From positions 6,471,725-6,503,724 of the forward strand of contig NC_009925.1 in NCBI RefSeq assembly GCF_000018105.1: a stretch of 32,000 nucleotides of DNA. The letters run 5' to 3'. The first letter of the stretch is position 1. The number at the start of each line of letters is the position of its first letter. The translations under genes were made by a program, and so were the position numbers. This document shows positions 5,186 to 28,890 of this stretch, piece by piece. The DNA is from Acaryochloris marina MBIC11017. Its GTDB lineage: Bacteria > Cyanobacteriota > Cyanobacteriia > Thermosynechococcales > Thermosynechococcaceae. The notes under the pieces were generated by a model. That model did no database searches, was not told the DNA's origin, and worked only from the letters and a program-made list of their open reading frames with translations.

Positions 5186-5203
5186 CATGAGAATCTTCTC
5201 ATG
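5186..5203. promoter_or_regulatory. Perfect palindrome CATGAGAA-TC-TTCTCATG between the two response-regulator genes
   Basis: The arms are 8 bp each with a 2-bp spacer, 14 nt downstream of the OmpR-type gene stop. Both arms carry the same octamer found in the 4619-4656 tandem repeats. On the minus strand it is followed by UUCUUUA, so it could instead be a weak terminator or attenuator hairpin. Confidence 0.4.
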
Positions 5204-5216
5204 CAGTAAATTGGAC

Positions 5217-5885
5217 CTAAGTCTTTAACCGATACCCAACCCCACGAACGGTTTCAATAAGTGAGTTGCCGAGCTTCTTGCGCAAATAGCCAACGTAAAC
5301 ATCAACGATATTGGAACCAGGATCATAGTCATATCCCCAGACCCGATCCAAGAGTTGCTGCCGACTGAGGACCTGCCCAGGGTGACGGAAAAATGTTTCT
5401 GCCAGAATAAACTCTCTGGCTGGCAGTTCGATCCATTGATCATCCACTTTGGCCTTACGAGTACGCAGATCTAGCACCACATTATGGGCCGTCATTGTCA
5501 TCGTCTCAGGAGGAGTGCCAATAGACACTGTTCTCAGTCGAACTCTAACCCTTGCCAATAACTCTTCAAACCGGAACGGCTTTGTCATATAGTCGTCCGC
5601 TCCTCCTTCAAGTCCAGAGATTTTATCTTGAATATCATCTCTGGCGGTCAAAATGATGACAGGGAGTACAGAACCTTGACCTCTCAAATCAGCTAAAACT
5701 TCTAGCCCATCTCTTCCGGGTAATCCCAAATCTAGTATCAGTAGCTCAAACCCATCACTTAAAGCGAAGGATAAGGCTTCATGGGCATTTTCTACCGTAG
5801 TCGTAGCGTATCCGTGGCTCTTTAAACCTTTCTCTATAAAGGATGCAATTCTAGGTTCATCCTCTGCGATCAGAATATGTGCCAT
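5217..5885 (-). CDS. OmpR-family response regulator (receiver plus winged-helix DNA-binding domain)
   Basis: The ATG at 5883-5885 gives MAHILIAEDEPRI. Further motifs are LLILDLGLPGRDG and KPF, followed by the C-terminal Trans_reg_C pattern LPAREFILAETFFRHPGQVLSRQQLLDRVWGYDYDPGSNIVDVYVGYLRKKL...TVRGVGYRL. The track ORF extends 8 codons further upstream. Confidence 0.9.
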   Translation of the reverse strand: MAHILIAEDEPRIASFIEKGLKSHGYATTTVENAHEALSFALSDGFELLILDLGLPGRDGLEVLADLRGQGSVLPVIILTARDDIQDKISGLEGGADDYMTKPFRFEELLARVRVRLRTVSIGTPPETMTMTAHNVVLDLRTRKAKVDDQWIELPAREFILAETFFRHPGQVLSRQQLLDRVWGYDYDPGSNIVDVYVGYLRKKLGNSLIETVRGVGYRLKT

Positions 5886-6044
5886 CGATAGTGGGCAGTT
5901 GTTTAACAATGACTACTTCTTAGACGATCATAATCACTGATACAGTTCCTCGACCATAAAGCCTGCTAATTTCTTTTTTCCAATACCTGACAGTTACAAT
6001 TATGAATATCAATAAAGTCTTGAGAAACGATGAGCCAATTGCCA

Positions 6045-10900: not shown

Positions 10901-11083
10901 TTGTCTCGGCGACCATGTTTGCCAAGTCTGTGGATTAAGACCTTTTTCGACAGGCAGATCATCTAAACAAGCTTGCCAATTGCCTTGAATATTCAACTGA
11001 GTCAGCTGATACAGTTTCAACATCGCGGAATCAACAAGGTTCTCCTGCTCAAGGGGGTGTTCTGGAGTGGACTTTGACTGCAT
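7958..11083 (-). CDS. GH38 alpha-mannosidase
   Basis: 1041-aa ORF. It carries GHAHLDLAWLWP (the GH38 N-terminal metal-site motif) and AWLPDSFGF (catalytic nucleophile context). Size and domain order fit bacterial cytosolic GH38 enzymes. Confidence 0.9.
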   Translation of the reverse strand: MQSKSTPEHPLEQENLVDSAMLKLYQLTQLNIQGNWQACLDDLPVEKGLNPQTWQTWSPRQLNAREHIDWPQGHLVLWLGQVISIPNDQFRYPLADCKLRLALTWWAEQAEIFVNGALVQAGDLYDCTARIVLSSAAQPGEEITVALRLVSPGHDPGALVGSQLIYEPPPPLLDPGKVADELAVLQGYLTKFAPEELASLNKAINAINWSHVNDPEAFSLSLNQLHQHLAPWKTWLQQRQINWIGHAHLDLAWLWPVAETWEAAERTFKSVLNLQADFPELIFCHSSPALYAWFEQNRPDLFAQIQAQVDKGTWEIAAGLWVESELNLISGESLVRQVLYGQKYTQEKFGCISKTAWLPDSFGFCWQLPQILKQGGIDYFLTQKLRWNDTTEFPYEVFQWRSPDGTEIFSIMLPPIGEQIYPVKMGTYAQGWESATGVKDCLWLPGVGDHGGGPTRDMLEVARQWQQSSLFPKLQPTTAERFCQQVETQIQQVPVWDDELYLELHRGCYTSHADQKHYNRDCEKLLYEAELWNAIATLTLDHSYPKDDLEQAWKKVLFNQFHDILPGSSIPQVFVDANCDWESAKQTATEHLHIALDAIASAIDIPQAPTSDSLPVIVFNSLNWPRSELVWVELPDTQKRWQISTIEGETQPVQRHPNQPNSLGFIAAVPSVGYQLYWLSPLVSAKPDQPDIAPKNWILENDYLQVQVNESTGELAQIYDKATQRQMLSGPGNQLQFFTDKGQYWDAWNIDPNYEHKRLPGATLQSIEWLSQGPLQQRLRVKLQFGQSQFCQDYVLDTDAPLLKIETTVDWQESQVLVKTVFPLTISSDSATYEIPCGAIQRPTLPNPQLDDREQAKWEVPALQWADLTDANGMAGVSILNDCKYGYDAKPDQLRLTLLRSPNWPDPGCDRGHHQFTYAIYPHAGSWQTARTTHKGYEINRPLRTLISLDQQKQGRLLQNQFLSLGTDNLVLMALKRSEDQPKAWVMRCYECHGEEAPLAVTNDLNLHFKQTIDLLETNYEMDRPNVVAPWKIRTLMFTSQ

Positions 11084-11357: not shown

Positions 11358-11774
11358 GTGAGGATGGGTGCCCGATTACGTACTTTATTGAATAGCTCAG
11401 AAGAACAGACCTTATTTGAACTGAGGACAGCAACAACAGTCCCCCAACGGGTCAAAGATCGAGCCGCAATGATTCGATTGAGTCATCAGGGGATGTATGT
11501 AGAGAAAATTGCAGCCCTATTCCAGTGTAATGTTCGGACCGCTCGCCAAACCTTTCATCGCTGGCAACAGAAAGGATTAGGAGGGCTATGGGATGCACCA
11601 CATCCGGGTGCTCAGCGACGGTGGCACCCTGAAGATATTGAGTATCTCGAAACCTGTTTGCGTCAGGAAGAACGCACCTACAATAGCCAACAACTGTCTC
11701 GGAAACTGGCGAAGGAGCGTAACGTTCACTTAAGTGCAGACCGCATCCGGCAGATTCTCAAAAAAAGGGGGTGA
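11358..11774 (+). CDS. IS630-family transposase, N-terminal HTH part (orfA)
   Basis: 138-aa ORF (GTG at 11358, ATG at 11364) with helix-turn-helix-like segments. It ends in ...QILKKRG* directly on the slippery run A7G5 (11760-11771). Confidence 0.8.
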
Positions 11775-11851
11775 TCTGGAAACGAACTCGCCATAGTCAC
11801 TGACATAAGCAAGACCCTGTTAAGAAAGCTATCAAACTCGCTGATTTAGAG

Positions 11852-12379
11852 ATGTTGCAGTGGGCAGCAGCGAGTAGAGGGATTGAGTTGTATTATCGGG
11901 ATGAGTCTGGTTTTTGCCTATGGATGCCCGTGGAATATAGCTATTTCTTCAAGGGAGAGCAAAAGCGGATGGAACAGACTAAACGTAAGGGAAGACGTAT
12001 CAGTATTTTGGGGCTTCTCCAACCGTTGACGACCTTTGTTTATGGGCTAGTTGTCGGCAGTTTTAATGCCGACCGTTACATCAAAATGATGGATGAGCAA
12101 GCACGCCAGGCCCAACAACAACTGGATAAAACTGGACGGATTCGGGTCATCGTTCAAGACAATGGTTCTAGTCATACTTACAAGAAAGCGAAGCAAAAAT
12201 GGGCACAGTGGCAAACCCAAGGGCTCTATTTATTCTTTCTGCCCAAATACTGTTCACAGATGAATCCGATTGAAACAGAGTGGCACCAGCTCAAAGCGCA
12301 CCAATTGAGGGGGCAAATGTTTGAGCATGAGCTGGATTTAGCCTATGCGGTGATGGATGGCGTGAAGGCTAGAGCGTAA
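11852..12379 (+). CDS. IS630-family transposase, DDE catalytic part (orfB frame; probably defective)
   Basis: It carries YYRDESGF, VVQDNGSSH and NPIETEWHQLK, the DDE triad context. The same frame read from 11765 gives [33 protein letters not shown] -1 shift on A7G5 would therefore fuse orfA and orfB, but an in-frame TGA at 11801-11803 interrupts the fusion. Confidence 0.8.
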   Translation: MLQWAAASRGIELYYRDESGFCLWMPVEYSYFFKGEQKRMEQTKRKGRRISILGLLQPLTTFVYGLVVGSFNADRYIKMMDEQARQAQQQLDKTGRIRVIVQDNGSSHTYKKAKQKWAQWQTQGLYLFFLPKYCSQMNPIETEWHQLKAHQLRGQMFEHELDLAYAVMDGVKARA

Positions 12380-12722: not shown

Positions 12723-13442
12723 TTAATTCTGAACGAGAATAATACCGTTCATCTGCTCTTTAATTACGCCTATGAACTGCTTCTGGTACTCTTCTTCATC
12801 AATCTCATTGATTAAGATTTCAATGAAGATGGCTAAATCTCTCCGATCTTTCAATAAGCTGATTTCAGCATAAGCATCATCATATATAAGCCCAGAAATA
12901 GGCCCTACTGCTTGCTGTAAGGCAGACTTTATTGTAGGTATCGTAGAACGTGGGATTTCAGTATATTTTGGCTCAACTGGAGTTACTAAGCCAGACTGTG
13001 CAACGGTTACAGGAGATGCATTCGATTCTGGATTCGATTCTTTATGGCCGTTAACTTCAGGGACCGTATTCTCTAGACTTGGAGCTAATGAGGCTGTTCC
13101 ATTAAGTTCACGGGGTTTGAGTGAATCCTGATGTTCCTCTAGTGACTTTGGCAGTTTGATACATAACTTTTGTAAGATTTCATTTGTTCCTGGTAGCACT
13201 CGATGAGTTTTGGAATGTTCTAGAGAATGCTTGCGCACAACAAAACTCTCAACTTCCATGCCAAGAACAGCGTTCAATGCGTTTGTACCAGACAGTGAGC
13301 CATAGCGAATATACGAGATTTCACCTTCTTTCACAGAAACCATCGCAGTATGCTTATCTTTGGTCGAGATAAGATATGTTATGTCTGTTTTCTCTTTAAT
13401 GTTCTGTAATAGTTGAAAAACTAGTTTTAGATATTCATCCAT
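12723..13442 (-). CDS. Hypothetical protein, possible DUF4388-like N-terminal domain
   Basis: 239-aa ORF in an AT-rich stretch. The N-terminal segment TAMVSVKEGEISYIRYGSLSGTNALNAVLGMEVESFVV resembles the DUF4388 pattern (G.I.......L.G..AL..VL....G.F). The middle is low-complexity Ser/Pro/Glu. The rest has no homology I recognise. Confidence 0.55.
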   Translation of the reverse strand: MDEYLKLVFQLLQNIKEKTDITYLISTKDKHTAMVSVKEGEISYIRYGSLSGTNALNAVLGMEVESFVVRKHSLEHSKTHRVLPGTNEILQKLCIKLPKSLEEHQDSLKPRELNGTASLAPSLENTVPEVNGHKESNPESNASPVTVAQSGLVTPVEPKYTEIPRSTIPTIKSALQQAVGPISGLIYDDAYAEISLLKDRRDLAIFIEILINEIDEEEYQKQFIGVIKEQMNGIILVQN

Positions 13443-16500: not shown

Positions 16501-17067
16501 TTATGATTCTTCTGGCAAAATTGCTTCTAGGTAGGGTGCAATATAGTTGCGACCCTGTTCAAGATAGTAGGGAGTAAAAAGGGACTCAAACTCTTGAGCT
16601 ACGACCTGTGTGGCGGATTCTAGCCGCTGGCGGCCATAGACCAAGAATTGTGCTGCGGATGAAGCATAGTATTCTCGCTCTGCACCCTCAATATGCTTTT
16701 TAAAGGCAGCATGATAGAGCTCGCGGACCTCATTCATCAGCTGTTCAATCGGGGGTGAGAAGTGAATAGAGTCTCCACTGGGGAGATCGATTTGCTTGGC
16801 CAGAATAAATCCAATCACGGTTCTCATACATTCACGGGTTTGGTCTACTGAAAGGCACTGTGGGTCTTGTCGGCGAAATCCCCATTGAGTGCAACCATTG
16901 GTTACTTCCAGTACTCGCAATAGGGCCAGTTTATCTAGCTCTTTGGAATCGAACTGTTCTAAGGCCAAAATATGATGCTCAACCCGGTGCTGAAAACTGG
17001 CAAAATCAGCCTCAAAATATTGTCTGAGCTCCTTGATTTGGGACAGTTTCTGCCAGTTGGGCAACAT
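16501..17067 (-). CDS. Hypothetical protein, last gene of the CIS-associated operon
   Basis: 188-aa ORF with an ATG start, 75 bp downstream of the 820-aa gene on the same strand. It looks predicted-helical and soluble, with no recognisable motif. Confidence 0.6.
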   Translation of the reverse strand: MLPNWQKLSQIKELRQYFEADFASFQHRVEHHILALEQFDSKELDKLALLRVLEVTNGCTQWGFRRQDPQCLSVDQTRECMRTVIGFILAKQIDLPSGDSIHFSPPIEQLMNEVRELYHAAFKKHIEGAEREYYASSAAQFLVYGRQRLESATQVVAQEFESLFTPYYLEQGRNYIAPYLEAILPEES

Positions 17068-17142: not shown

Positions 17143-19605
17143 CTAAAACTGAGGTGGCAATTCTGCTGGTGGTGGCGAATTACGATCGCGGGGTACGGGC
17201 TGAATACCGCCGGGTGGATCGGGTAAAGGCGGAGCAGGTGCTGCCGCTGCGTTGGGATCTACCCCAGGAGCTGCCGCTGGAGGAGTTGAATTATTCGCCT
17301 CAGCACTTACGGGGGCATCGGACGCTTGAGCCACTGGAGCAGGAGGTGCCACAGTTTCAATCACCACGGATCGATTTTGTTGTTCACCTTTGGCATTCGT
17401 GACTTGCAGGGTTAGGGTTTGGGTGGCAGAGGTGGGGCCAAACGATAAATTTGCCTTGCCCTGGAGGGGAACAGTCCCTGGCGCAGGCAGTAAATTGACC
17501 TTAGTATTTTTACTCCCTTTAACCTTCCAGGATACCTTCACGATCAACGGCGTTTGATCTTTAAGGGCAAACACATATTTGGGTTTCGCAATCTGGCCAT
17601 TAATTTTGAATTCCTGGATTTGTACTGGCCCAGGCTGAATCTGGATCGGCTCGGTTTTTTGAATAATCGGAGATGGCTCTGCAGGCGGATTAGCCTGGGT
17701 GGGTTTCGGGGCGACTTTGAGCTCAAAGGTATAGGTCCCGGCGTCTTGAACCCCAGTTGGTACATTCAGACAAACTAGGGTTTGGACGTCCAAACGACAA
17801 TTTTTTTGTAGGGACTGGGGAATACCTTGAGTGAAGTCAAATATTTTGGGAGCTGTGACTGGTGCATTATCTGCTCCCCGACCAATTAGTGTCACTTTGG
17901 TTCCTTTGGCCTGGGTGATTTTCCAGTTCAGAAAAATCCCTGATGGTCCCCTTGGGGGAACCTGACCAATGGGTTCTGTATAGGTGGTCTTTGTGGATTC
18001 AAATTGTTGAATTTGAGGGGGAGGGAAGGGTTGAACCACAATTGCCTCTGTTTTGGCCGCAATGGGTTGAGGGACGCCCTCGGGTTGAGGGGAGAGAGAC
18101 AGCTCAAACCGATAGGTGCCAGGTTTGCGTGCATCCGTGGGCACCTGCTGACACCGCAGGACCTCAGTTAGGGTACAAAAATGGCTAAGGTCTGAGGGTA
18201 TTCCCTTTTGGAAATCGTAGATAAAGGGACCACTCATCACGACCCCGTCAGGAGAAACTCCTTTCAGTTGAAGCTGCTTGAATTTCTGAGGATTTTTTAT
18301 GGTCCAGTTCAGTTCAATGGGACGACCATCGGCCTCTTTGAGGGTATAGGTTGCTGGGGCAAAGCTGATAATCTCGGCTCGGGCTGGGGGACGGGTCAGT
18401 AACCACCATACGAGTAAGGCAATCCCAACTAAGGTGCCAAACAGGGTCAAAATAACCAGCAATAATTGCCACCAAGGTCGAGGTTCCCAAATCAATGCTC
18501 CTTGAAAGCGATTATTGGCAAGGGGGAGTTGCTGGGCATCTTCCAACTCCAGGGCAAAGTTGAGGGGGCGACCATAAAAGGGGCGCTTCCACCATTTGGT
18601 GGGCTGAACTTCTAAGCTGACCTTGGTCGAGGCATGGGGTAATAAATGGACTTGGGTGGGGTTAAGAGTATAGTCGCAGAGTTCTTCCGCATCTAGATTT
18701 TGGACCTGTAAATTGAGAGTTCGTGGGGTATTTCCAGCATTGTGAAGCCGTAGTTCAAACCATCCGGACTGGTTCTTGACTTGGCTGACCAGGGAAATAA
18801 GCTCGATATCAACCTGGTAAATCGGTAAAACTTGTAAATAAACCGCTTCCAACAACACCAGTTCCGGGTTGTTCATGGAAAACAGGCGGATGGTGGGGGT
18901 ATAAATGCCTGCATCCGTACCTAGGGGCGGCTGAATCAAGACCTGAATTTGGCCCGTATCCCCTGGGTTGAGTTCCAGGGCTTCACTGGCAATCACAACG
19001 CCGGTTTGCGGTCCTTCTGGATAAATAATCTTGACCCATTCGGTAGGCAGGTCTGGACAGATTAAGCGGAATCGATCGACGCGATCGCATCGGTTATCCA
19101 CCAGCACCGTTAAGGCCAACGCATCTCCAGTTTGTAAAGGCAGGGGAGACTCGGCCGTGGTGGTTGGGGTGATGCCTAAAACCGGATTGCTGACTTCTGC
19201 CGTTTCCCGGATGTAGGACAGCACCTGTAGCCGAGCCGGATAGCGGATCGGCGTCTCTTCTGGGTAATGTTTGGGGGCATCAATCACTAAGGTATAGGGA
19301 TAAAAGCCCGGTAGGGTTTCCGTTGGCACCTGAATACGGAAGAACACCTCGCTACTTTCTCCAGGGTTTAGGGCCAGACTTTCCCGGGAGGAGGTACACC
19401 ATTGGCTGACGATATCCGTGGGGTCTGTGATATCGATGTGGATAATGGCACTGTGGATTCCATCATTGGTGACGGTCACACTCAGTTCGAAAATTTCCCC
19501 CGCCTGAATCGCCACATCGCCGGATGGGTTGCGGATAATGCCCAAGGGATTGCCCACTTTCTGGGCTTGCAGGCCAATTTGATCAATTTGGGTGAGGTCT
19601 GTCAT
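17143..19605 (-). CDS. Single-pass membrane protein: three N-terminal beta-sandwich-like modules, a TM helix, three Ig-like repeats and a Pro/Ala-rich tail
   Basis: 820 aa.
- The TM helix PWWQLLLVILTLFGTLVGIALLVWWLL spans about aa 378-403 (nt 18397-18474).
- The N-terminal part has repeated ...NPGES.EVFFRIQVP-type strands, resembling CARDB/NEW3-like modules.
- After the TM there are three roughly 110-aa repeats. Two of them carry a conserved Cys pair (HFCTLTEVLRCQQVP and KNCRLDVQTLVCLNVP).
- The tail is APPAPVAQ...PPLPDPPGG...PPPAELPPQF. Confidence 0.8.
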   Translation of the reverse strand: MTDLTQIDQIGLQAQKVGNPLGIIRNPSGDVAIQAGEIFELSVTVTNDGIHSAIIHIDITDPTDIVSQWCTSSRESLALNPGESSEVFFRIQVPTETLPGFYPYTLVIDAPKHYPEETPIRYPARLQVLSYIRETAEVSNPVLGITPTTTAESPLPLQTGDALALTVLVDNRCDRVDRFRLICPDLPTEWVKIIYPEGPQTGVVIASEALELNPGDTGQIQVLIQPPLGTDAGIYTPTIRLFSMNNPELVLLEAVYLQVLPIYQVDIELISLVSQVKNQSGWFELRLHNAGNTPRTLNLQVQNLDAEELCDYTLNPTQVHLLPHASTKVSLEVQPTKWWKRPFYGRPLNFALELEDAQQLPLANNRFQGALIWEPRPWWQLLLVILTLFGTLVGIALLVWWLLTRPPARAEIISFAPATYTLKEADGRPIELNWTIKNPQKFKQLQLKGVSPDGVVMSGPFIYDFQKGIPSDLSHFCTLTEVLRCQQVPTDARKPGTYRFELSLSPQPEGVPQPIAAKTEAIVVQPFPPPQIQQFESTKTTYTEPIGQVPPRGPSGIFLNWKITQAKGTKVTLIGRGADNAPVTAPKIFDFTQGIPQSLQKNCRLDVQTLVCLNVPTGVQDAGTYTFELKVAPKPTQANPPAEPSPIIQKTEPIQIQPGPVQIQEFKINGQIAKPKYVFALKDQTPLIVKVSWKVKGSKNTKVNLLPAPGTVPLQGKANLSFGPTSATQTLTLQVTNAKGEQQNRSVVIETVAPPAPVAQASDAPVSAEANNSTPPAAAPGVDPNAAAAPAPPLPDPPGGIQPVPRDRNSPPPAELPPQF

Positions 19606-19621
19606 GAGCTTTAATCATCCA

Positions 19622-21865
19622 TTAGGGTTTGCCACAGGGGAGAGTTTGTCGCTGTATTCGGGACTGAACGTCTTTGACCGTGGTGGAAAATAAGCGAACT
19701 TGTGTATCATCGCTGCCGCTCAGCACGAGGATCTTGCCACCAATCACCTTCAGGTCCACACTGTTGATGCGATCGGAGGAACGGGGATGCAGAATATTTT
19801 GAAAGAAGTTTGCCATGCTAACGGTAGAGGGTTCATACAGTTCAATCCCCTCTCGGAATTCAGGATCTCGTTGACCATTGGGCAACAAGGGCCACAGCAT
19901 GACCCGACCATCATCACCCCCGCTGGCTAGGTAACAGCCATCGTCACTCATAGACACGGATCGCACGGGCTGTGTAGCCTCACTATGGGACCAGATTTCA
20001 GGCTTTAGGGTTTTGCAGGTGGTCGAATCCTGAAGGCAGGGGGCTAAATTCCACAGGGTAATATTGCCTTGGGTATCTGCGGTAGTCAGGAGCGTTGGCG
20101 TATCACGAGCTGTATCAATGCTTTGAATATAGTCGCGGTTGGTGCCTGATTCGGGATAGATAAGGGGCTCTAGGGCTTGTTTGGACTGCCAATTCCATAA
20201 GACCAACTGATTTTGTTGACCTGCGATCGCAAGCCACTGATCTGGATTTCCTAACAGCACTGAATCGTAGATGGCGAAAGGCATTTTTTGCTCTTTGAAG
20301 ATTTTGCGCTGTTGAGCTGTCCTCTGGGTTGCCCAGACAACAATCGTGCCACTGCCATGACTACTGAACAAATAGCGAGAGTCTTGACTAAACTCCACAT
20401 CCAAAACGCGATCAGCTTTTTCGTAGCTAAAGGTTTGCAGCGGATCTGTATGATCCGTATTTAAATCCCATAACTGAATTTGGCCATTTTCCAGACCCAC
20501 CGCCACCAAATCGTTATTGACAGGGCGATAGGTAATCCCACGAATGGCTTTTTGTTGCTGAGCCAACTGTTTGCCCCGCTGAATAATATTTTCCAAATAG
20601 GGGAAAGCCCACCAAGCGCTGAGTCCTTGCACACTCCAACGAATCGCCGTCGTATCGTTAGAACTGGACACAGCCTGATCCGCAATACCGTTAAAGGCGA
20701 CGGAGGTCACGGCCCCCCGATGACCATAATTGCGGTTGTATTGATTAAAGGGAGAAATCCACCATAGCCATACCCCGCCTACCAAAGCCATTAAGATCAC
20801 CAGCCACAACGGGATCCGAGGTTTAACTTTTAGTTGGAGAACATGGGTTTCATCGCGACTATCAATGCGTTCGACATTTGACCAAACGGCCTCCACTTGT
20901 ATGGTATGTCGCTTGGAAAAGCCCAACCAGTGGCGATCAGCTTCAGCAATCAACGAAAGTTTGCCAGAATCACCCAATCCCAACTTGATATTGTCTGGCA
21001 TTACCTCAAAGGTGCAGTGAGGGGGGGGATCGACGATCTCTGCTTGGGCATGTTGATATAGGTTACTGTTATTTTCAAATTGCAACTCATAGATAACCGG
21101 AGGAGATTGCCAAAACTTCAATTGAAACTGCTCTGGAATGCAATGTTCCTCTGGCTGGGCCTGAAAGGCCACAAAACCTAAGGGATCAATTTTCAAGTGT
21201 CCTTCAATTTGAGTGGGTGGCCCATAGGCATGACTCGCCTCAACCTGGAACCGATAGCCATGACTAGGAGCCTGCACCGGATCAGCAGGTACTTTACAGT
21301 TAAAGGTGGTTTGCACCCGTCCTCCAGGAGCCAGTTTTACTGTTTGCTCGTTGCCTTCCGGGAACCAACTGGCATCAATGCCTTGGAGACTGACGGTTGC
21401 AGTCGTTTTTAACTGACTGGGGTTACTGACCCATACCGGAATTTGAATTTCCTCTCCTGGATCAGCATCAAAATCTTCAACGGGTAAATTGAGCCCCAAG
21501 GGCACTGCCCCTGTTCCCTGCGCCAGAGTGAGCTTTAGAGATTCCCGTTCTTCTTCCTGCAGTTCAATGGAAAACACCCTTACAGCTAAGCTCATTAAGC
21601 CCACAAACCCTGGCACGGGACTATCGGTGATCTCAATTTGGAATTGGGTCGTATCTCCAGGAGGATTTTTACTACTAATGTCTGGTGAAACGTGATACCA
21701 TTTGCGCCCAGCTAGATGATTGGTCCCTGCAGCTGAGACCTCAAGCTGGAAACTGGCATATCGATCGCTGTGATTGACCACCTCCACGGCAAAGGCAGAG
21801 GGAGGACCTCCAGGGGTAAAGGCCAACTGCTTGGGTAATACTTGGGTGGCAAGCTGCTTTTCCAT
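19622..21865 (-). CDS. Single-pass membrane protein: N-terminal beta-sandwich-like modules, a TM helix and a seven-bladed WD40 propeller
   Basis: 747 aa.
- The TM helix IPLWLVILMALVGGVWLWWI spans about aa 351-370 (nt 20756-20815), with K/K/R on its N-terminal side.
- The C-terminal half has about seven WD40-like blades: GHRGAVTSVAF...IRWSV, ...GQIQLWDL, ...GTIVVWA, ...NQLVLWNW, ...GNITLWNL, PVRSVSMSDDGCYLASGGDDGRVMLWPL and ...GSDDTQVRLFS. Confidence 0.85.
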   Translation of the reverse strand: MEKQLATQVLPKQLAFTPGGPPSAFAVEVVNHSDRYASFQLEVSAAGTNHLAGRKWYHVSPDISSKNPPGDTTQFQIEITDSPVPGFVGLMSLAVRVFSIELQEEERESLKLTLAQGTGAVPLGLNLPVEDFDADPGEEIQIPVWVSNPSQLKTTATVSLQGIDASWFPEGNEQTVKLAPGGRVQTTFNCKVPADPVQAPSHGYRFQVEASHAYGPPTQIEGHLKIDPLGFVAFQAQPEEHCIPEQFQLKFWQSPPVIYELQFENNSNLYQHAQAEIVDPPPHCTFEVMPDNIKLGLGDSGKLSLIAEADRHWLGFSKRHTIQVEAVWSNVERIDSRDETHVLQLKVKPRIPLWLVILMALVGGVWLWWISPFNQYNRNYGHRGAVTSVAFNGIADQAVSSSNDTTAIRWSVQGLSAWWAFPYLENIIQRGKQLAQQQKAIRGITYRPVNNDLVAVGLENGQIQLWDLNTDHTDPLQTFSYEKADRVLDVEFSQDSRYLFSSHGSGTIVVWATQRTAQQRKIFKEQKMPFAIYDSVLLGNPDQWLAIAGQQNQLVLWNWQSKQALEPLIYPESGTNRDYIQSIDTARDTPTLLTTADTQGNITLWNLAPCLQDSTTCKTLKPEIWSHSEATQPVRSVSMSDDGCYLASGGDDGRVMLWPLLPNGQRDPEFREGIELYEPSTVSMANFFQNILHPRSSDRINSVDLKVIGGKILVLSGSDDTQVRLFSTTVKDVQSRIQRQTLPCGKP

Positions 21866-21868: not shown

Positions 21869-23602
21869 CTAGATAGGGGGTAACTGAGATTGCAGTCGGT
21901 CTCGAATCCAGTTCAGACTTGAGATTTGATGTCCCTGCCATTCAGGTTTTCGTTGCCATAAAACATTGGCCGTTATATTCACTAAATGGGGATAGCGTTT
22001 GAGCAGCTTCAGCAGATCTGACGTTTCGACAATAAATAAACTGGTTTGGTAAAACGTTTGCCCTTTAATAGGGGGAAGATTGTCGAATAGCAAGCTGAGA
22101 TCTCCCCAACAATTACCCGCCGTCAAGGTGATGCTCTGATCAGTGAATTGAAGACCGCCGAAGATCACGAAATAGACTTTGCCGGATTCGGGTATCAAGG
22201 ATTCTTCCGCAGCCAGGTTTTGGCGATAGCCTCGATCTAAAAGCTGCTGGAACTGGATTTCAGGCCAATTTTGAAAATAATCTACCTGTCTAAGAACGTC
22301 GGCGAGTTGCGTTTGGCGATGCAGGAGGCGATTACCCAATTGAGGAAATTGGCGCAGCAGCCGCTGAAAAGCCTGATCCTCAATGACAAAAAGCGTGGTT
22401 TGTTCAACCGCCAGGATGGTATTTTGGCGGGCAACCCCAGAAAGTAAAGCCGTTTCACCAAATGCATCCCCGGAAACCCATTTATTTCCTTGTCGTTCAG
22501 GATGATCCATCTGGGACTGAATCACCCCGTTGAGAATGATATAAAATACTTGACCCAGCTCTCCTGCTCGAAAGATCACTTCTCCCGGCTCGTACTGGCG
22601 CTGATAGCCACAAGCGATTAAATCTTGAAGTTGATTTTCCGAAAAGTCCTGGAGAAAATCTACACTTTGCAAACACCGGAGTAAATCTAAATCCTGAGAT
22701 TGTCCCAGTTGTTGCCGGACTTGGCGCGATTTTGCTAAAAGCTCGTGGGTATAGGGGATCTGAATTTGGCTTAATAACGCCTGGACAGAGTTAGGGACGG
22801 TATTGGGGGTGGCGACTGAAGTTTGTTGAGAGCTAGAAGGGCGATGGTAAACGTTGGTGAATAAGTGGTGTAAAGCTCCTGCCAATTGACCAATTTCATC
22901 CTTATGTCGGGCATGGTGGTGCAAATGTTGAATTTCAGTGCTGGATTCATCCAGAGGTCGAATCGGAGCTTGCCGAAGCTGATGAGCTAATTGAGTGATG
23001 GGTTGGATCGGTTTTAAGACGGTTCGTCGAACTAAGTCATTCACTAACAACAGAATTAGGCCCAATAAGACGACCAACGTCCCCATCTCCATCCAAAAGT
23101 TGGCGTTCGCTAACTCTTTTACAGGCGCGGAAGGAATAAAAACGGCTTGAATTTGCAGGGTGCCATCCTGATCTAGACGTTGGGCAAAATAATAGTTTTC
23201 CTGGTCAGCATGGGTGATATAGCCGGATATAGTTTCTTGGTCGATCTGTTTCTGGAATTGGGTTTTGAGGGCTTCGGCTAGCTCATCTATATCCGGGAGC
23301 ATCGTGTCAGAGTTTGGCACCAAGACTTTGTAACACAAGGAGGGTTGAGTCTCGCACAAGGTGGAAACGACTGGGTAAGCCTCAGAAGCAGAATCATCCT
23401 GTTTGAGCTGATCCACCAACGCCATCAAGAGTTGCCCCCGAGACTCCAGCTCGTGATCAGCCTGTCTATGAACAGATTGATGAACGATCACCCCTGCAAT
23501 TCCGGTCGTGGCCATAAAAACCATTGACAGAATAAGGCTGAATTTGGTGGTTAGGTTTAACCGTCGCCACTGACGTTGTAAGGCGCTGGCAATATAAGGC
23601 AT
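21869..23602 (-). CDS. Two-TM membrane protein with a HAMP domain and two cyclic-nucleotide-binding domains, no output domain
   Basis: 577 aa.
- TM1 is FSLILSMVFMATTGIAGVIV.
- A loop of about 130 aa follows, then TM2 MEMGTLVVLLGLILLLV.
- The HAMP-like segment is LKPIQPITQLAHQL...DEIGQLAGALHHLF.
- cNMP domain 1 has GEVIFRAGELGQVFYIILNG and the phosphate-binding cassette FGETALLSGVARQNTILA.
- cNMP domain 2 has a degenerate cassette (WGDLSLLFDNLPPIKGQ). Confidence 0.85.
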   Translation of the reverse strand: MPYIASALQRQWRRLNLTTKFSLILSMVFMATTGIAGVIVHQSVHRQADHELESRGQLLMALVDQLKQDDSASEAYPVVSTLCETQPSLCYKVLVPNSDTMLPDIDELAEALKTQFQKQIDQETISGYITHADQENYYFAQRLDQDGTLQIQAVFIPSAPVKELANANFWMEMGTLVVLLGLILLLVNDLVRRTVLKPIQPITQLAHQLRQAPIRPLDESSTEIQHLHHHARHKDEIGQLAGALHHLFTNVYHRPSSSQQTSVATPNTVPNSVQALLSQIQIPYTHELLAKSRQVRQQLGQSQDLDLLRCLQSVDFLQDFSENQLQDLIACGYQRQYEPGEVIFRAGELGQVFYIILNGVIQSQMDHPERQGNKWVSGDAFGETALLSGVARQNTILAVEQTTLFVIEDQAFQRLLRQFPQLGNRLLHRQTQLADVLRQVDYFQNWPEIQFQQLLDRGYRQNLAAEESLIPESGKVYFVIFGGLQFTDQSITLTAGNCWGDLSLLFDNLPPIKGQTFYQTSLFIVETSDLLKLLKRYPHLVNITANVLWQRKPEWQGHQISSLNWIRDRLQSQLPPI

Positions 23603-23606: not shown

Positions 23607-24989
23607 CTAGGAGGTAGATGCTGCAGGTGTAGCTAGAAGTTGACGATAATGCTGGCGTTGCCAAGCATAGTGAAGGATATTGGTGCCAAACTCCTGGGCC
23701 GTGCGAATCTGGTCTCGGGCAAACCCTTCTTTGCTGCCGCCGCCCCAAACCACTGATAAATCGCCCACCAACATCAGCAGATGGTCACTGAAAAACAGTT
23801 CGACCGGCTGTTGGTTGACGATGGGTAACGCACCAAATTGAAAGGGTTGGCATCGAATGGGATGGTCTGCTGGCATGGTTTGCAGAGACTGTAGAGGCTG
23901 CCCCAATTGCTCAGCTAAGGTTCGAAAAGGGAGTCCTGTTTCATTCAGCTTGGCACTGAGAGCAGTTTGAGTAGCAGATAATTCGCGGGTAATATCTTGG
24001 CGCAACGGTTGGAGAGTCTGATGATCGGCAGATGCCCCCAACGCCTGTGAACGATCGATTTGAGACAGAGCTGTTTGTAGTTGGGCTTTAACGGTAAATA
24101 GTTCTGCTAACTGAGTGCCCCGAACTGAGACTTCAACCCACAAAAATCCCCCTTGCATGAGGAAATATCGGAGCGATCGCACTTGCACATCCGTTAAAGA
24201 TTGAGCCGATTGTGTCTGCAGGTACAGCACATCGTAATCCCTGAGATCAACCGCTTGGTTGCGATCCACCAGCTCAATGGGATGAGGCGCATCCACGGCC
24301 AGCAGATTGGGATACAGCACCTCAATAGATCTAAGAAAGGCTTGGAAATTAGTGATTGACTGCTGATTCTGAGGGGAGGGCGCAATGGGACTGACTTGAG
24401 CGATCTGGAGCACGGCTTGAGGACGAGATCGCGGCTGTCGTCGATACCGCAAATCCACCTGGTTAATTTGGGGAAAGAAGGGATCCGTCGGAAGCTCTAG
24501 CTGAGCTTGGGTATCAATGACGATCCGACAAATCTCAACTTCTCCGGGGCCGGGGGGATGGGTCTTTTCATCAATTCGAAACACCTCTGTCAGCACAGGG
24601 TTTTCCTCAGATTGCTGAAGTTGTTCTGGATCGACGTATTGGAGAACTAAATAGATGGTGGTCGGTTGCTCCACCCGAGAAGCAATCCTAAAGTCGATGG
24701 GCTCAGGGACTACGATGCAATTGCCTTGGTCATCAATGGCCATTCCCGGTTGAACCTGCAGCCATCGTTGGTCTTGAAACGGCTGGGAGATTTTGTCCGG
24801 TGGGGAAATGGGATGGATGCCTAACCCACAGACAATCCCCGGCTGATGGAGGGATTGGTAATACAAACTCTGGCGTTGGCGATGGTAATCATAGGCCAAC
24901 CGCCAACGCTCAGCATTAATCAACAGCCCATCCGTTACCCGCAGACGTTGCAGGGGTTGAACCGGGGGAGTGGGTGGTGAGTAGGTCAT
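23607..24989 (-). CDS. CIS-associated protein of unknown function with a possible DUF4159-like C-terminal half
   Basis: 460 aa, and its stop is 4 nt from the next start. The N-terminus is LRVTDGLLINAERWRLAYDYHRQRQSLYYQSLHQPGIVCGLGI. The central segment YDVLYLQTQSAQSLTDVQVRSLRYFLMQGGFLWVE resembles the DUF4159 signature (...LY..G...F.L.....LR.YL..GGFL..D). It occupies the slot directly after the gpI-like gene. Confidence 0.65.
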   Translation of the reverse strand: MTYSPPTPPVQPLQRLRVTDGLLINAERWRLAYDYHRQRQSLYYQSLHQPGIVCGLGIHPISPPDKISQPFQDQRWLQVQPGMAIDDQGNCIVVPEPIDFRIASRVEQPTTIYLVLQYVDPEQLQQSEENPVLTEVFRIDEKTHPPGPGEVEICRIVIDTQAQLELPTDPFFPQINQVDLRYRRQPRSRPQAVLQIAQVSPIAPSPQNQQSITNFQAFLRSIEVLYPNLLAVDAPHPIELVDRNQAVDLRDYDVLYLQTQSAQSLTDVQVRSLRYFLMQGGFLWVEVSVRGTQLAELFTVKAQLQTALSQIDRSQALGASADHQTLQPLRQDITRELSATQTALSAKLNETGLPFRTLAEQLGQPLQSLQTMPADHPIRCQPFQFGALPIVNQQPVELFFSDHLLMLVGDLSVVWGGGSKEGFARDQIRTAQEFGTNILHYAWQRQHYRQLLATPAASTS

Positions 24990-25086: not shown

Positions 25087-26142
25087 TCAGGACGATTCAA
25101 TGGATAAGTCGTAGGTGCAAAACGCGGGCTTCTCCTGCTGGATGATCTTGTGGATAAGGGGTTCAGAGAGAGGCTGTTGGGAACGCAAGCAAACGGAGAA
25201 ATGGAAGGGCTTGCCCCCACCGACGGTGGATTCTTGACCCAGGTGAGTTTCCCCCAGCACTAACCCACGATTAAAGGAATCTTGAATGGAGATCTGCTTT
25301 TGGTCTTCTGGGACAAACTCTTCCAAGGGGAGCCCCGTATATAAATGCAGATAGAGCCGCAGCCCTTTGCGCGTGCCTCGCCATTGATAGAGCTGAATCG
25401 CCTGACGAATCAGGGACCGTTGCCGAGATAGCGGCAATTCGGAGGCCAGCTGCCAGCCCACCCAATGGGACAGAAAGGGAAGTAAGGTTTCAGGGGCTGT
25501 CAGGGGATCGAGATAAGCCCAAAGGGTATCCAGGGTTTGAACGGCTGGTTCAAAGGCCTGCTCAAAAATATGGAGAAAGCGGCCAATAAAATCTACCTCT
25601 TTATAGATGTCGGGTAGGAAGGTGGGATAGAGACTGCGGGGGCGAACAAACAGTAAAAACTCTGCTGTCTCTAAGGTTAAGCCACTGGTCGCTTCGTTCG
25701 TCTCAGCATCAACAGTGCCGAAATACACACAGAGCCGCCCCCGAAAATCTAACCCCTGGGTTTGAATAAAGGCTGGACTAGACTCGGCCTCAAAAAAATC
25801 TTCCGGCAGCTGGAAGTATAAGACCGCTTCCATTTTGCTGCCAGGAGGCAAGGTTTGGCCTTCTTGCCCAATCCGACACCAGTCTAAAGGAAAGGTTCCT
25901 TCTGTCTCTAAGCTGATGCGAAGGGTGCGATCGCAGGTATTCTCCAGCTGCACCACAATTTCGCTAGGTTCCCCCGGATATAGCACCTGTTGACAGAGAT
26001 GGCTCTGTTGCCAAGCAAAAGGAGCTATCTCAGGTGTCACAGACTGTGATGCCGTCCTCACAATGGGTTGGGGCATCGTCGCCGCCACTGACATAGAGGC
26101 CAGTTGCAGTCTTAAGGGCAGTAGATCAGGGGAGGTGGTCAT
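25087..26142 (-). CDS. Baseplate wedge protein, P2 gpI / T4 gp7-like (Afp12/Pvc12 equivalent) with an N-terminal extension
   Basis: 351 aa. The C-terminal part is LPDIYKEVDFIGRFLHIFEQAFEP...LLPFLSHWVGWQL...SLIRQAIQLYQWRGTRKGLRLYLHLYTG. This is the conserved phage tail protein I-type domain seen next to baseplate J in eCIS and P2-like loci. The first 170 aa or so form an extra beta-rich module. Confidence 0.85.
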   Translation of the reverse strand: MTTSPDLLPLRLQLASMSVAATMPQPIVRTASQSVTPEIAPFAWQQSHLCQQVLYPGEPSEIVVQLENTCDRTLRISLETEGTFPLDWCRIGQEGQTLPPGSKMEAVLYFQLPEDFFEAESSPAFIQTQGLDFRGRLCVYFGTVDAETNEATSGLTLETAEFLLFVRPRSLYPTFLPDIYKEVDFIGRFLHIFEQAFEPAVQTLDTLWAYLDPLTAPETLLPFLSHWVGWQLASELPLSRQRSLIRQAIQLYQWRGTRKGLRLYLHLYTGLPLEEFVPEDQKQISIQDSFNRGLVLGETHLGQESTVGGGKPFHFSVCLRSQQPLSEPLIHKIIQQEKPAFCTYDLSIESS

Positions 26143-26172: not shown

Positions 26173-28350
26173 TTACAGCAGACTGATAGCGTGACTAGAG
26201 CGAAGTGGGGCATTCTGCCAGGAGCAGAGCACCCCTAAAGGTCCTGGATCGATCACGGGTTCCTTGGGCAAAATCCGCTGCCAACGAGATTCCTGGCGAC
26301 GGAGTTCAAACAGCTGTACGGTTCCCAAATGACGCACCCCCGGCATGGGCTGAAACAGCGTCACAATATCCGAGGGATACACGGGACGGCCAAAGGGCCA
26401 ACCTCGGCCATCGGGACCGCCGGTAATTGGATTTAGAAACCGATAGAGGGCGACCTGAAGCTGATGTCGCATCTGTGTTTGGGCTTCTGGATTGTTATAG
26501 TTCGGCTCTAGGGCGACCTCTGCCTGAACGGTTACCCCGACATAGTGAGGTTGGTCATAGCGAATGGCCATGCCCAGGAGACGACGGTCATCTAAGTAGT
26601 CACTAATCTGGGTTTCCAGTTGGGGCGTCAAACTCAGAACATCTGGATGAAGCCCTTCGCCCCGCTCAATGGCGTCGGTACTCACCTGGGGAACGATTAG
26701 AAGTCGGACCTGCCCTGGGGTACCCGTTTGATCCGCAGGCAAACAGAGGACACGTGCAACTGCCCCTTGACCTGCCGTTAAGGCTAACGTCTCAAAATCT
26801 TCTTTGGTGACTGCGCGATCGCGAGTCCGCAACATTTGCGGTACGCGAATGACTGCAGCATCCAGGGATTCGGCATCAGTACCGTTCTGGGCAGGCTGAT
26901 GATTGATTACATTAGCGACATAGGGAACCGCCGTTTTCAAAATCCGAATCATCCCGCGTTGCACATTGCCTTTCAGCCCTCCGCCTGTACGATAGGTCGC
27001 CATCCGCAGTTCAGCTCCCTTCGGCGGGACCTTGCCATATTGGCGTTTCAGAGCTTGCTGCTCAGGGGCTAGGGCCACAAGATTGGCATTGGATTGGGCC
27101 ATTCGCTGTTGCGTTTGCACCTTGATTTGAGCGGGTTCTCGAATCAATGGTCCAAACTGTAGCGCCCCCGTCAGGGCATCAATAGTGTAGTGCAGGTCTT
27201 CTGGCCCAGAGTCCGCAAAGTCCGAGACCTCCGTCCAACGCTGGGGAATGCCACCGATAGGGGTCACCAACAGGTATTCCTGGGCTCGGCGAGGCAGAAT
27301 CGGTGCGGATTGGAGTTGAAAGGCTTGTCCAGGCGTGCCATCACTGGTTCCTAAAATTTCATTGTGAATTTGCAAAGATTGCGTCGTATCGACCGTCGCG
27401 CCAATGGCTTGCACCGACACCCCAACAATTTCTGGCGAACAACGATACCCCCATTGGGTGGTTTGTTCCGTTTCATAAATACACCGAATCCAGCGACCTT
27501 GGTAGCTGGCAAAATTTGTCACAGGCCAGTGTTGCGGCAGGTGTAAGATCACATCTGCTCCCTGGAGGGGATTACCATTTTGACGAGTTAACCGGGCAAA
27601 GCTAAAGCCATCCGTATGGTCATCGGCTTCATTTAATAAAATGGGTTGCCAGTAGACACCATTCCAAGCTTGCCACTGGCGGGGTGGACATTCAGGGTTA
27701 ATCCCTGTGGGAGTTGCCGCTTCCCCCTTAAACGTCACGGAGATCACATTTCCTGCCGGTTGCTCTGGCTCAAAGACGAGATAAAAACAATTGCCAGTTT
27801 GAGGTTGAGGATTGAAGCAGCTTAAGGCAGACCCTTGCCATTCTCCATCAGGATTTAGATTCCAGGATTCGGCAAAGCGATCTCGCACGAGCTGCGGTTC
27901 CATTTCAGCCCTATCAGCTGTCAGAAAGTGCCGCAGTTGGGGTTGCCCAATTGTGACAGGGCGATCGGTGCTAAAGACAATCGCTTCTTCCGTTTCCGTC
28001 CGTAGGGTTGCTACTTCCGTATCCATCGGAATCGTGTAGTTTTCCGACAAACCTGCACTGAGGTAGAAGGTCACTGGCGTCTTTGCTGGGGAGGGGGGCT
28101 GCAACCTGACCCCCATTAACTCTAAGAAGGTGACATAGTTGCGACGGGGCACCTGATTAAATCGCAGCAACATTTGGTCCGTTAGCCAGCTAAATAGCTC
28201 GACCAATGTAATTCCTGGGTCGCTGGGGTTATGGTGGGTCCATTCAGGGCAATAGCGAGGGATGCGGAGTAGACATTCTTGCACGAGATCATCGAAACTG
28301 CGGTCATCGAGATCTGACTTGGGTAGCTTGGGTAAGAAATCAAACTCCAT
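26173..28350 (-). CDS. Baseplate J / T4 gp6-like baseplate assembly protein (Afp11/Pvc11 equivalent)
   Basis: 725 aa. The N-terminus LDDRSFDDLVQECLLRIPRYCPEWTHHNPSDPGITLVELFSWLTDQMLLRFNQVP is the characteristic opening of eCIS-type putative baseplate assembly proteins. It lies 7 bp after the gp25-like gene. Confidence 0.9.
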   Translation of the reverse strand: MEFDFLPKLPKSDLDDRSFDDLVQECLLRIPRYCPEWTHHNPSDPGITLVELFSWLTDQMLLRFNQVPRRNYVTFLELMGVRLQPPSPAKTPVTFYLSAGLSENYTIPMDTEVATLRTETEEAIVFSTDRPVTIGQPQLRHFLTADRAEMEPQLVRDRFAESWNLNPDGEWQGSALSCFNPQPQTGNCFYLVFEPEQPAGNVISVTFKGEAATPTGINPECPPRQWQAWNGVYWQPILLNEADDHTDGFSFARLTRQNGNPLQGADVILHLPQHWPVTNFASYQGRWIRCIYETEQTTQWGYRCSPEIVGVSVQAIGATVDTTQSLQIHNEILGTSDGTPGQAFQLQSAPILPRRAQEYLLVTPIGGIPQRWTEVSDFADSGPEDLHYTIDALTGALQFGPLIREPAQIKVQTQQRMAQSNANLVALAPEQQALKRQYGKVPPKGAELRMATYRTGGGLKGNVQRGMIRILKTAVPYVANVINHQPAQNGTDAESLDAAVIRVPQMLRTRDRAVTKEDFETLALTAGQGAVARVLCLPADQTGTPGQVRLLIVPQVSTDAIERGEGLHPDVLSLTPQLETQISDYLDDRRLLGMAIRYDQPHYVGVTVQAEVALEPNYNNPEAQTQMRHQLQVALYRFLNPITGGPDGRGWPFGRPVYPSDIVTLFQPMPGVRHLGTVQLFELRRQESRWQRILPKEPVIDPGPLGVLCSWQNAPLRSSHAISLL

Positions 28351-28357: not shown

Positions 28358-28762
28358 CTAGGTAATGGGGGTCAGATAAAAGGGATAAACTAAACTCCGG
28401 TAATCGTGGGTCTGTTTAGGATGGTATTCGAGGGTGATATCAACCCGCCCCTCAATGGGGTCTGGTTCTGTATAAACACCATCTAGAACAATGCGGGGTT
28501 CCCACCGTTGCAAGGCTTCTGTGACGTACAATCGAATCAACAAAAGGGTTTGAGTATTCATCGGGGCAAAGGTCAACTCGGAGAGACGGGAACCAAACTC
28601 AGGCCGATAGACCCGCTCCCCCAGTTTGGTCCCCAGAACGATTGCGATAGATTCTTCTATGTTGCGAATGGCGTGGGCACTAAATCGTAAATTCCCCTGG
28701 GTATTCACCCCAATGGGAAACGTCCAACCCGTCCCCAAATGAGCAGCTTGACCGTCCACCAT
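28358..28762 (-). CDS. GPW/gp25-family baseplate wedge protein (Afp9/Pvc9 equivalent)
   Basis: The ATG at 28762 gives MVDGQAAHLGTGWTFPIGV...IEESIAIVLGTKLGERVYRPEFGSRLSELTFAPMN...ALQRWEPRI, the gene-25-like lysozyme-fold signature. The track ORF starts 9 codons earlier on GTG at 28789. Confidence 0.9.
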   Translation of the reverse strand: MVDGQAAHLGTGWTFPIGVNTQGNLRFSAHAIRNIEESIAIVLGTKLGERVYRPEFGSRLSELTFAPMNTQTLLLIRLYVTEALQRWEPRIVLDGVYTEPDPIEGRVDITLEYHPKQTHDYRSLVYPFYLTPIT

Positions 28763-28890
28763 ACCCCTGTCCCATCTAGTAGAGCTCACTATAAGGGCTA
28801 GGTAAAAGAGGGACTATTGGCCAAAAGTCGTACCTATTGGGATGAAGATCACTAAACCTTTGTCATTAGACCTGACCCTAAGCGACTGGC

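Follow-up and report, generated by a model that had tools for sequence, protein, structure and literature searches.

A membrane protein with a heme-less Cache remnant, HAMP and cyclic nucleotide-binding domains, encoded in a baseplate operon of Acaryochloris marina as a candidate receptor of a cyanobacterial contractile injection system

The contractile injection systems (CISs) of Streptomyces and the thylakoid-anchored CIS (tCIS) of Anabaena respond to “stress”, and the H1 type VI secretion system (H1-T6SS) of Pseudomonas is under post-translational control by TagQRST-PpkA-PppA-Fha1, a membrane sensor system that times and places the assembly of a contractile machine. To our knowledge, CisA, which has no sensor domain, is the only accessory CIS membrane factor that has been characterised. 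This membrane protein is encoded in the CIS cluster of Streptomyces coelicolor and is needed for firing (PMC12237407), and the tCIS of Anabaena is anchored to the membrane through the transmembrane (TM) helix of Cis13 (PMC8894136). Here we describe a candidate CIS receptor encoded in a window of 32,000 nucleotides of Acaryochloris marina MBIC11017 (NC_009925.1, positions 6,471,725 to 6,503,724; coordinates below are those of the window unless a locus is named). The gene, at 21869..23602 on the minus strand, starts with ATG and encodes a protein of 577 aa. Like CisA and Anabaena Cis13, this protein would link a cytoplasmic CIS to the membrane from within a CIS cluster, but those two proteins have no sensor, HAMP or cyclic nucleotide-binding (CNB) domains, and the likeness meant here is one of proposed role rather than of sequence.

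The gene lies in a tightly packed minus-strand operon of eight genes (28789 to 16501), between the gene of a 460-aa protein with a Cis13-like N-terminus and a DUF4159 domain (23607..24989) and that of a 747-aa membrane protein with a WD40 propeller (19622..21865). Four nucleotides separate the stop of the 460-aa gene from the start of the receptor gene (TAG-tgct-ATG), and three separate its own stop from the start of the WD40 gene (TAG-act-ATG). An original prediction, made from the letters of this region without database searches, had given the open reading frame (ORF), its length, two TM helices around a loop of about 130 aa (about 126 aa are found here) and this spacing exactly, and had recognised the gene as a close-packed member of a CIS baseplate operon, as the junctions and the gene content confirm. 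No competing ORF of at least 70 aa is present on the opposite strand of the gene. The best match to the protein is a 96%-identical protein of Acaryochloris sp. CCMEE 5410, and in a single-sequence word-index search the full-length architecture was matched in Acaryochloris only.

From its N-terminus, the protein consists of a TM helix, a heme-less remnant of an sCache domain, a second TM helix, a HAMP domain, a stalk, two CNB domains (CNB-A and CNB-B) and a C-terminal tail, and each residue can be assigned to one of these parts. No kinase, cyclase, channel, MCP, HisKA/HATPase, GGDEF/EAL or helix-turn-helix (HTH) domain was found by Pfam, NCBIfam, PDB or Foldseek searches, which agrees with the expectation of a receptor-like membrane protein without a recognisable output. 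A hidden output domain was also sought by a Foldseek search with an AlphaFold2 (AF2) model; none was found, and the idea was rejected because every residue is already assigned. The earlier statement that the protein holds two TM helices, a HAMP-like linker, two cyclic nucleotide monophosphate (cNMP) domains and nothing else is thus correct as to enzymatic and DNA-binding outputs, but it passed over a truncated Cache-type sensor in the loop and a conserved C-terminal tail. A known HAMP receptor without an output domain is Af1503. Proteins with two TM helices, an sCache_heme domain and a HAMP and without further output also exist (preprint 10.64898/2026.02.01.703092).

The first TM helix (TM1, aa ~21-42, 23477..23542) follows a K/R-rich N-tail and is modelled by AF2 as a helix with a pLDDT of ~80, and the second (TM2) occupies aa ~169-191 (23030..23098); the hydrophobic segments themselves are aa 22-40 and 173-191. 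Because the K/R-rich flanks lie N-terminal of TM1 and C-terminal of TM2, the topology is likely to be N-in/C-in, with a cytoplasmic N-tail and with all parts after TM2 in the cytoplasm. The extracytoplasmic loop between the helices (aa 43-168, 23099..23476) has no Pfam match when searched alone, and PF11845 is unmatched even at an E-value of 10. Its homology to sCache_heme is visible only through relatives that are encoded at the same place in the operon of other cyanobacteria (the slot, see below) and that do match PF11845. In alignments with these relatives, two segments of the heme-Cache are deleted, one of ~33 aa that bears the CXXCH motif and another of ~26 aa, and no CXXCH motif is present in the protein. 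As judged from these alignments, the loop is a heme-less remnant derived from an sCache_heme (Tll0287-like) domain, and the protein once had, or has, a second input. It shares the TM-sensor-TM-HAMP plan of the sCache_heme sensors (DUF3365/Tll0287-like, PF11845), and its N-terminal half is homologous to the slot proteins that match PF11845 with CXXCH; because the motif and the surrounding segment are deleted and PF11845 is unmatched, it is better regarded as a derived remnant than as a member of that family.

The HAMP domain (aa ~192-250, 22853..23029; amphipathic sequence 1 (AS1), KPIQPITQLAHQL; amphipathic sequence 2 (AS2), DEIGQLAGALHHLF) is matched by Pfam (PF00672, aa 190-250) at 19-21 bits, under the cut-off of 25 bits. 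In agreement with the original prediction of a HAMP-like linker, the segment is colinear with the HAMP of slot homologues that pass at 28-41.5 bits, sits directly after the last TM helix, and fits the conserved Pro of AS1 and the DE-[IL]-G-x-L pattern of AS2, with P198 and D235-E236-x-G238 invariant in the family alignments. A linker and stalk follow (aa 251-305, 22688..22852), which, in alignments and in the AF2 model, consist of a Pro/Ser-rich stretch and then the helix YTHELLAKSRQVRQQL.

CNB-A (aa 306-435, 22298..22687) is matched by Pfam cNMP_binding (PF00027) at aa 335-418 with an E-value of 6e-17 and 61.8 bits against a cut-off of 27.5, and its best sequence matches in the PDB are cGMP-dependent protein kinase (PKG) and the regulatory subunit of cAMP-dependent protein kinase (PKA-R). 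The phosphate-binding cassette FGETALLSGVARQNT (aa 381-395, 22418..22462) keeps the Arg that had been pointed out at the outset: G382-E383 and R392 align with the Gly-Glu and the phosphate-contacting Arg of the PKG cassettes, and Glu383 and Arg392 are invariant in nine of nine Acaryochloris sequences. CNB-B (aa 436-555, 21938..22297) has no Pfam match, and a phmmer search of the PDB gives one match, to the CNBD of a cyclic nucleotide-gated (CNG) channel, with an E-value of 0.95. When it is compared with the CNB-A profile by hhalign, a probability of 99.4% is obtained (E 2e-21, 119 columns), and in Foldseek searches with the AF2 model the tandem CNB-A/B modules of PKA-R and PKG rank first, over ~260 aligned columns. 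Despite the silence of Pfam, profile and model comparison thus indicate a CNB fold for CNB-B. Its cassette (WGDLSLLFDNLPPIKGQ, aa 499-515, 22058..22108) reads G-D-L-S-L-L-F-D-N-L-P-P-I-K-G-Q, with Asp in place of the Glu and with the Arg gone, so that its description as degenerate was apt.

In alignments, CNB-B is placed between CNB-A and the shared tail, and it is found in the Acaryochloris proteins but not in the slot relatives; it is thus best read as an Acaryochloris-specific duplication, the relatives having one CNB, and the predicted pair of cNMP domains holds for Acaryochloris but not for the wider family. A “CNBx2” call for relatives of ~640 aa proved to be a split-HMM artefact, alignment showing a single CNB, and phmmer matches of these relatives to CNB-B were rejected because they arise from cross-matching by the one CNB that these relatives have and by the shared tail. 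The tail itself (SLNWIRDRLQSQL, aa 556-577, 21872..21937) contains W-I-R-D-R-L; the motif W-I-R-x-R-[LM] ends all CNB-bearing slot proteins (for example at ~13300-13415 of locus L010, and in P0141 and P0162; L and P numbers are our handles for loci and for relatives retrieved by sequence) and is not present in the CNB-less ones. This tail may serve as a docking helix.

The AF2 model used above was built from an alignment of 23 sequences, including the relatives, and has a mean pLDDT of 62 and a pTM of 0.30, with both CNB barrels at 65-80; a model from the nine Acaryochloris sequences alone reached a pLDDT of 37 and was not usable. Ratios of nonsynonymous to synonymous substitution (dN/dS) were calculated against a 77%-identical A. 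marina orthologue, at a dS of ~1.2 that is near saturation, so that the values are rough: 0.105 overall, 0.066 for CNB-A, 0.075 for TM2 and HAMP, 0.087 for CNB-B and 0.119 for the heme-less loop. At this resolution, all domains are under purifying selection, the degenerate parts included.

PKA regulatory subunits and the PKG regulatory region have a single output, in that a ligand makes them bind or release another protein, and the tandem CNB-A/B modules of these proteins are the best structural and sequence matches to aa ~300-560 of the A. marina protein. The latter differs from them in that it has no docking/dimerisation domain, no inhibitor or pseudosubstrate sequence and no kinase partner, is tethered to the membrane through a HAMP, and has a CNB-B without the cassette Glu and Arg; a kinase gene was not found in the operon. 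The relation to PKA-R and PKG is taken as a functional analogy, the most helpful one to work with, and the A. marina protein is not a member of that family.

The distribution of the gene was followed by a locus scan anchored on the 460-aa protein with one genome per species, which gave 370 cyanobacterial loci, 80 of which were examined. Genes for gp25, J, I and the DUF4159 protein are common to all 80, and in many cyanobacterial genera the gene in the slot, flanked by those of the DUF4159 and TM-WD40 proteins, encodes a member of a single protein family whose ends vary. The first variant (~355 aa) consists of a TM helix, an sCache_heme domain (PF11845, with CXXCH), a TM helix, a HAMP and a coiled-coil stalk; the second (~445-505 aa) has the order TM, dCache_1, TM, HAMP and stalk; and the third (~625-650 aa) adds to the second one CNB, with the cassette GELSLLLGIPRTAT, and the C-terminal tail NPLxWIRxRM. 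The fourth variant (528-529 aa; P0141 and P0144), to which the A. marina protein is closest, combines sCache_heme, HAMP, one CNB and the tail. A stalk helix, …YFKxLQxKAxxIRxR, forms the C-terminal end of the short variants and the pre-CNB linker of the long ones, and because it persists in this way, the CNB and tail seem to have been added at the C-terminus of a sensor-HAMP-stalk core. The CNB form occurs in 11 of the 80 loci (Laspinema, Phormidium, Oscillatoria, Pantanalinema, Roseofilum and marine metagenome-assembled genomes), in addition to Acaryochloris, and in the examined loci CNB domains are found inside slot proteins only.

In 68 loci the downstream sequence extends for 4 kb or more; of these, 40 have a TM-WD40 gene and 28 do not, and a sensor-HAMP slot gene is present in 31 of the former and in 4 of the latter. 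The start of the slot gene is no more than 250 nt from the DUF4159 stop in 33 of 35 cases. Several loci (L004 1580-3722, L012 11408-15350, L028 11388-15917 and L089 6471-9953) have two or three copies of the slot gene in tandem, and some of them pair a CNB-less with a CNB-bearing copy. In L033, L041, L042, L046 and ~20 further Nostoc/Calothrix-type loci, gp25, J and I are followed by the gene of a shorter DUF4159 protein of ~400 aa, and WD40, 820-aa and slot genes are missing downstream; these loci look like a sub-lineage without the membrane module.

Conserved synteny with CIS genes in related genomes was a test set beforehand, and its outcome is strongly positive, the same slot being occupied in many cyanobacterial genera. 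It was also examined independently of the neighbouring genes by a search by sequence alone, in which the 577-aa protein was compared with 1.84 billion representative proteins and the genomic context of six matches spanning TM2, HAMP and CNB was inspected. All five informative relatives (P0141, P0144, P0162, P0190 and P0226) are encoded between DUF4159 and WD40 genes; the sixth contig was too short. Slot relatives of other cyanobacteria are true homologues of the A. marina protein, at 21-32% identity, and share TM2, HAMP, stalk and, where a CNB is present, CNB-A and the WIRxR tail with it. The CNB-bearing slot proteins were reached by this exhaustive representative search and by the neighbour-anchored genome scan; an alignment-based word-index search added one sCache_heme–HAMP relative (P0285) and none of the CNB-bearing proteins. 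The named relatives, namely the dCache_1, HAMP and CNB protein of Laspinema (L010 11496-13415), P0141 and P0144, and the Pseudanabaena “cache domain-containing protein” WP_126391275.1, differ from the A. marina protein in that the dCache or heme-binding sCache of slot relatives is intact and their CNB-bearing forms have one CNB with the canonical cassette GELSLLLGIPRTAT (RTAT), whereas the A. marina protein has a shortened, heme-less sensor, an extra degenerate CNB-B and an RQNT cassette. The most informative annotations that slot relatives carry are “cache domain-containing” and “cyclic nucleotide-binding domain-containing” protein.

As judged from these gene clusters, the A. marina protein is a true and conserved accessory protein of a CIS lineage in cyanobacteria, and the family to which it belongs is a previously undescribed, modular receptor family built into the CIS baseplate operon. 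Alignments indicate that the conserved, machine-associated part is the sensor-HAMP-stalk core and that the cNMP module is a lineage-specific add-on. The original idea of a cNMP receptor as a feature of the CIS therefore applies to Acaryochloris and to the 11 of 80 loci noted above, but not to the lineage at large, in which most slot proteins are CNB-less and 9 of the 40 WD40 loci have no slot gene. Its remark that no cNMP-regulated CIS had been described agrees with a literature search in one library, which found no paper tying a CIS to a cNMP-binding, HAMP/Cache, DUF4159 or WD40 protein; this is one library's coverage and not proof of novelty.

The nature of the machine is best seen in relatives. 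Genes for a gp19-type tube protein, CIS_tube, VgrG and PAAR lie just upstream of gp25 in Laspinema. On the plasmid NZ_AP017564.1 of Pseudanabaena sp. ABRG5-3 (L090-L092), which was found through a VgrG tblastn search of a plasmid collection, the CIS lies in three blocks on one replicon of 125 kb that also carries a nif cluster. The first block contains DUF4255, sheath and tube genes; the second an AAA ATPase, a tail assembly protein and DUF4157 proteins; and the third is a baseplate block that ends in the Cache/HAMP slot gene (“cache domain-containing protein”) and a WD40 protein gene. Two metagenomic relatives also begin at gp25. From this gene content, the operon lineage is best regarded as a genuine, often dispersed CIS, and a prophage-tail remnant was rejected on gene content and conservation. 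No Acaryochloris was among the best 15 of 135 records of the VgrG search, but the Acaryochloris chromosome is not in that collection, so the search is uninformative on the genome of the window. The Pseudanabaena plasmid further carries a response-regulator gene between the DUF4255 and sheath genes, a gene for a hypothetical protein of 2531 aa between the tube and CIS_tube genes, and a Nif11-like precursor near the baseplate block. In L086 (CP166621.1, 1-2082), a divergent gene for an eCIS_core protein (PF13699/DUF4157) lies just upstream of gp25, beside a Nif11-type leader peptide gene.

The reading that we prefer, at a probability of about 0.5, is that the 577-aa protein is the Acaryochloris version of a transmembrane receptor family that is dedicated to one cyanobacterial CIS lineage and works as a ligand-controlled adaptor at the interface of baseplate and membrane. 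Because it has no enzymatic or DNA-binding output, it would act through protein contacts. The HAMP implies a dimeric four-helix bundle, which would turn a signal into a change of the downstream helices. Binding of cAMP (or cGMP) to CNB-A might then reposition CNB-B and the WIRDRL helix, in the manner of a PKA regulatory subunit, and this rearrangement could alter the hold on, or the release of, a partner from the operon, possibly the Cis13-like/DUF4159 protein at the baseplate periphery and/or the 747-aa TM-WD40 and 820-aa proteins with their cytoplasmic Ig-like halves. The timing of docking, assembly or firing of the baseplate at the membrane would depend on this change in binding. The relatives would take their input through an sCache_heme or dCache outside the cytoplasm, alone or together with one CNB; because the outer sensor of the Acaryochloris protein appears vestigial, its cytoplasmic nucleotide site would be the main remaining input. 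The control of H1-T6SS, a machine of a different CIS clade, relies on phosphorylation and on other proteins, whereas direct binding of a second messenger is proposed here. The strongest form of the proposal, in which docking, assembly or firing of the CIS at the membrane is switched directly by cAMP/cGMP through a HAMP-CNB receptor and sister systems use heme-Cache (gas/redox) or dCache (small-molecule) inputs, is advanced only as a tentative idea that may well be wrong.

Several observations weigh against this reading. The residues that follow Arg392 in CNB-A are Gln-Asn (an RQNT cassette), which is atypical beside the usual Ala/Ser/Thr-Ala, and affinity and specificity of CNB-A are uncertain for this reason. 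Loss of the heme motif and degeneration of CNB-B fit a drift to a purely structural role, and the confidence of the AF2 model is only moderate. Because the slot gene is missing from nine of the 40 loci with a WD40 gene, and a CNB from most slot proteins, cNMP input is not a general need of the machine. The Fisher test for the co-occurrence of slot and TM-WD40 genes (p = 3e-7) is uncorrected for shared ancestry and thus ignores phylogeny. Sheath, tube and spike genes are present neither in the window nor at the locus of A. marina CP064923.1 (both start at gp25), and a complete CIS in Acaryochloris is assumed from its relatives.

Of the competing explanations, the one that survives best, although we consider it possible rather than likely, is that the protein is a pseudo-receptor, a structural membrane adaptor that spaces or anchors the baseplate together with the WD40 and 820-aa proteins and whose Cache remnant and CNBs are ligand-unresponsive scaffolds. 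The clean deletion of the CXXCH segment speaks for it, since conservation of this motif among sCache_heme domains reaches 99% (preprint 10.64898/2026.02.01.703092), as do the missing Glu and Arg of the CNB-B cassette and the atypical R-Q-N of CNB-A; moreover, CisA and the TM helix of Cis13 are precedents for CIS membrane adaptors that do not sense (PMC12237407, PMC8894136). However, the ligand-contact residues of CNB-A are kept in every Acaryochloris sequence and CNB-A is the most constrained domain (dN/dS 0.066, with the reservation made above), the cassettes of relatives at this slot are canonical and their dCache or heme-Cache domains intact, and a HAMP is a module of signal conversion that would be superfluous in a passive anchor.

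It is rather improbable, in our estimation, that the protein is co-transcribed with the CIS genes but physically independent of the machine, passing a cNMP signal (in the relatives, that of an external ligand) to a partner encoded elsewhere. The sensor-TM-HAMP plan is indeed typical of signalling receptors, contact with CIS proteins is only inferred, and the slot gene is missing from the nine WD40 loci mentioned. Yet the protein has no kinase, MCP, cyclase, GGDEF/EAL or HTH output; the five sequence-retrieved family members all lie in this operon slot only; the membrane WD40 gene tends to be accompanied by the slot gene; and the junctions of 3-4 nt suggest co-translation with the neighbours. 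An unrelated cNMP-binding gene inserted by chance into a phage-tail-like remnant, to which the confinement of the full-length architecture to Acaryochloris in the word-index search and a nearby insertion sequence (IS) element at 11358-12379 might point, is hardly credible, because homologues at the same position in many genera contradict it, the gene is under purifying selection, the whole operon is intact in A. marina, and there are no phage genes, whereas relatives carry VgrG, PAAR, sheath, DUF4255 and DUF4157.

The neighbours of the receptor gene in the operon, all on the minus strand, are those of a baseplate and of membrane proteins. The first gene of the operon encodes a gp25/Cis9-like baseplate wedge protein (28358..28789; Pfam GPW_gp25, E 2e-19) and is followed by genes for Cis11/gpJ-like (26173..28350; TIGR02243, E 3e-197) and Cis12/gpI-like (25087..26142; TIGR02242, E 9e-38, and Tail_P2_I) baseplate proteins. 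The Cis13-like part of the 460-aa protein upstream of the receptor is matched by NCBIfam CIS13_fam at aa 14-119, far under the cut-off, and the protein has no TM helix, unlike the Cis13 anchor of Anabaena. The 747-aa protein downstream is a single-pass membrane protein with an Ig-like N-terminal half, a TM helix at aa 347-365 and a C-terminal WD40 propeller, and the next gene (17143..19605) encodes an 820-aa single-pass membrane protein with an Ig-like (NPCBM_assoc) N-terminal half, a TM helix at aa 381-399 and an Ig-like, Pro-rich C-terminal half. Neither has a signal peptide. Their Ig-like N-terminal halves are probably cytoplasmic, in which case the WD40 and the Ig-like, Pro-rich C-terminal halves are outside, and both proteins are candidates for a CIS membrane complex. 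Paralogy of the two N-terminal halves was considered, but the match is weak (E ~0.02) and is not claimed. The block ends with a gene for a 188-aa protein without a family match (16501..17067), which in the locus comparison is found in Acaryochloris only. The window thus holds a wedge-plus-membrane module only.

No enrichment was seen when the operon was scanned for promoters and terminators. Upstream of gp25, ndhM lies on the other strand. The same eight-gene block is present in A. marina CP064923.1 (locus L001) with a different upstream flank. Downstream of the operon, at 11358-12379 on the plus strand, the window has a split IS transposase (an HTH_23/HTH_32 ORF and a DDE_3 ORF); at the matching place, L001 has a gene for a 301-aa sCache_heme (CXXCH) and HAMP paralogue of the slot family (20334-21239), of which tblastn found no trace in the window. 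Three tandem paralogous GT28-type glycosyltransferases, a pair of CheY-like and OmpR-type response regulators and a GH38 alpha-mannosidase are encoded further along the window (770-4383, 4732-5909 and 7958-11083, all on the minus strand), and these genes appear unrelated to the receptor.

The receptor family gives a tractable handle on the triggering of Afp/tCIS-clade CISs that are cytoplasmic or anchored to a membrane. Because candidate ligands can be named (cAMP/cGMP, and NO, redox state or small molecules) and point mutants such as R392A and E383A can be designed, triggering becomes accessible to experiment. The loci scanned here outline a large CIS lineage of cyanobacteria, represented by 370 loci or more, with a Cis13-like/DUF4159 protein and two single-pass membrane proteins, which is not mentioned in the literature searched (one library), and its receptor family has recognisable exchangeable input modules, namely heme-Cache, dCache and CNB. 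If the preferred reading is true, these proteins would define a family of signal-gated phage-tail nanomachines with exchangeable inputs, and ligand control of this kind could be used for switchable injection devices.

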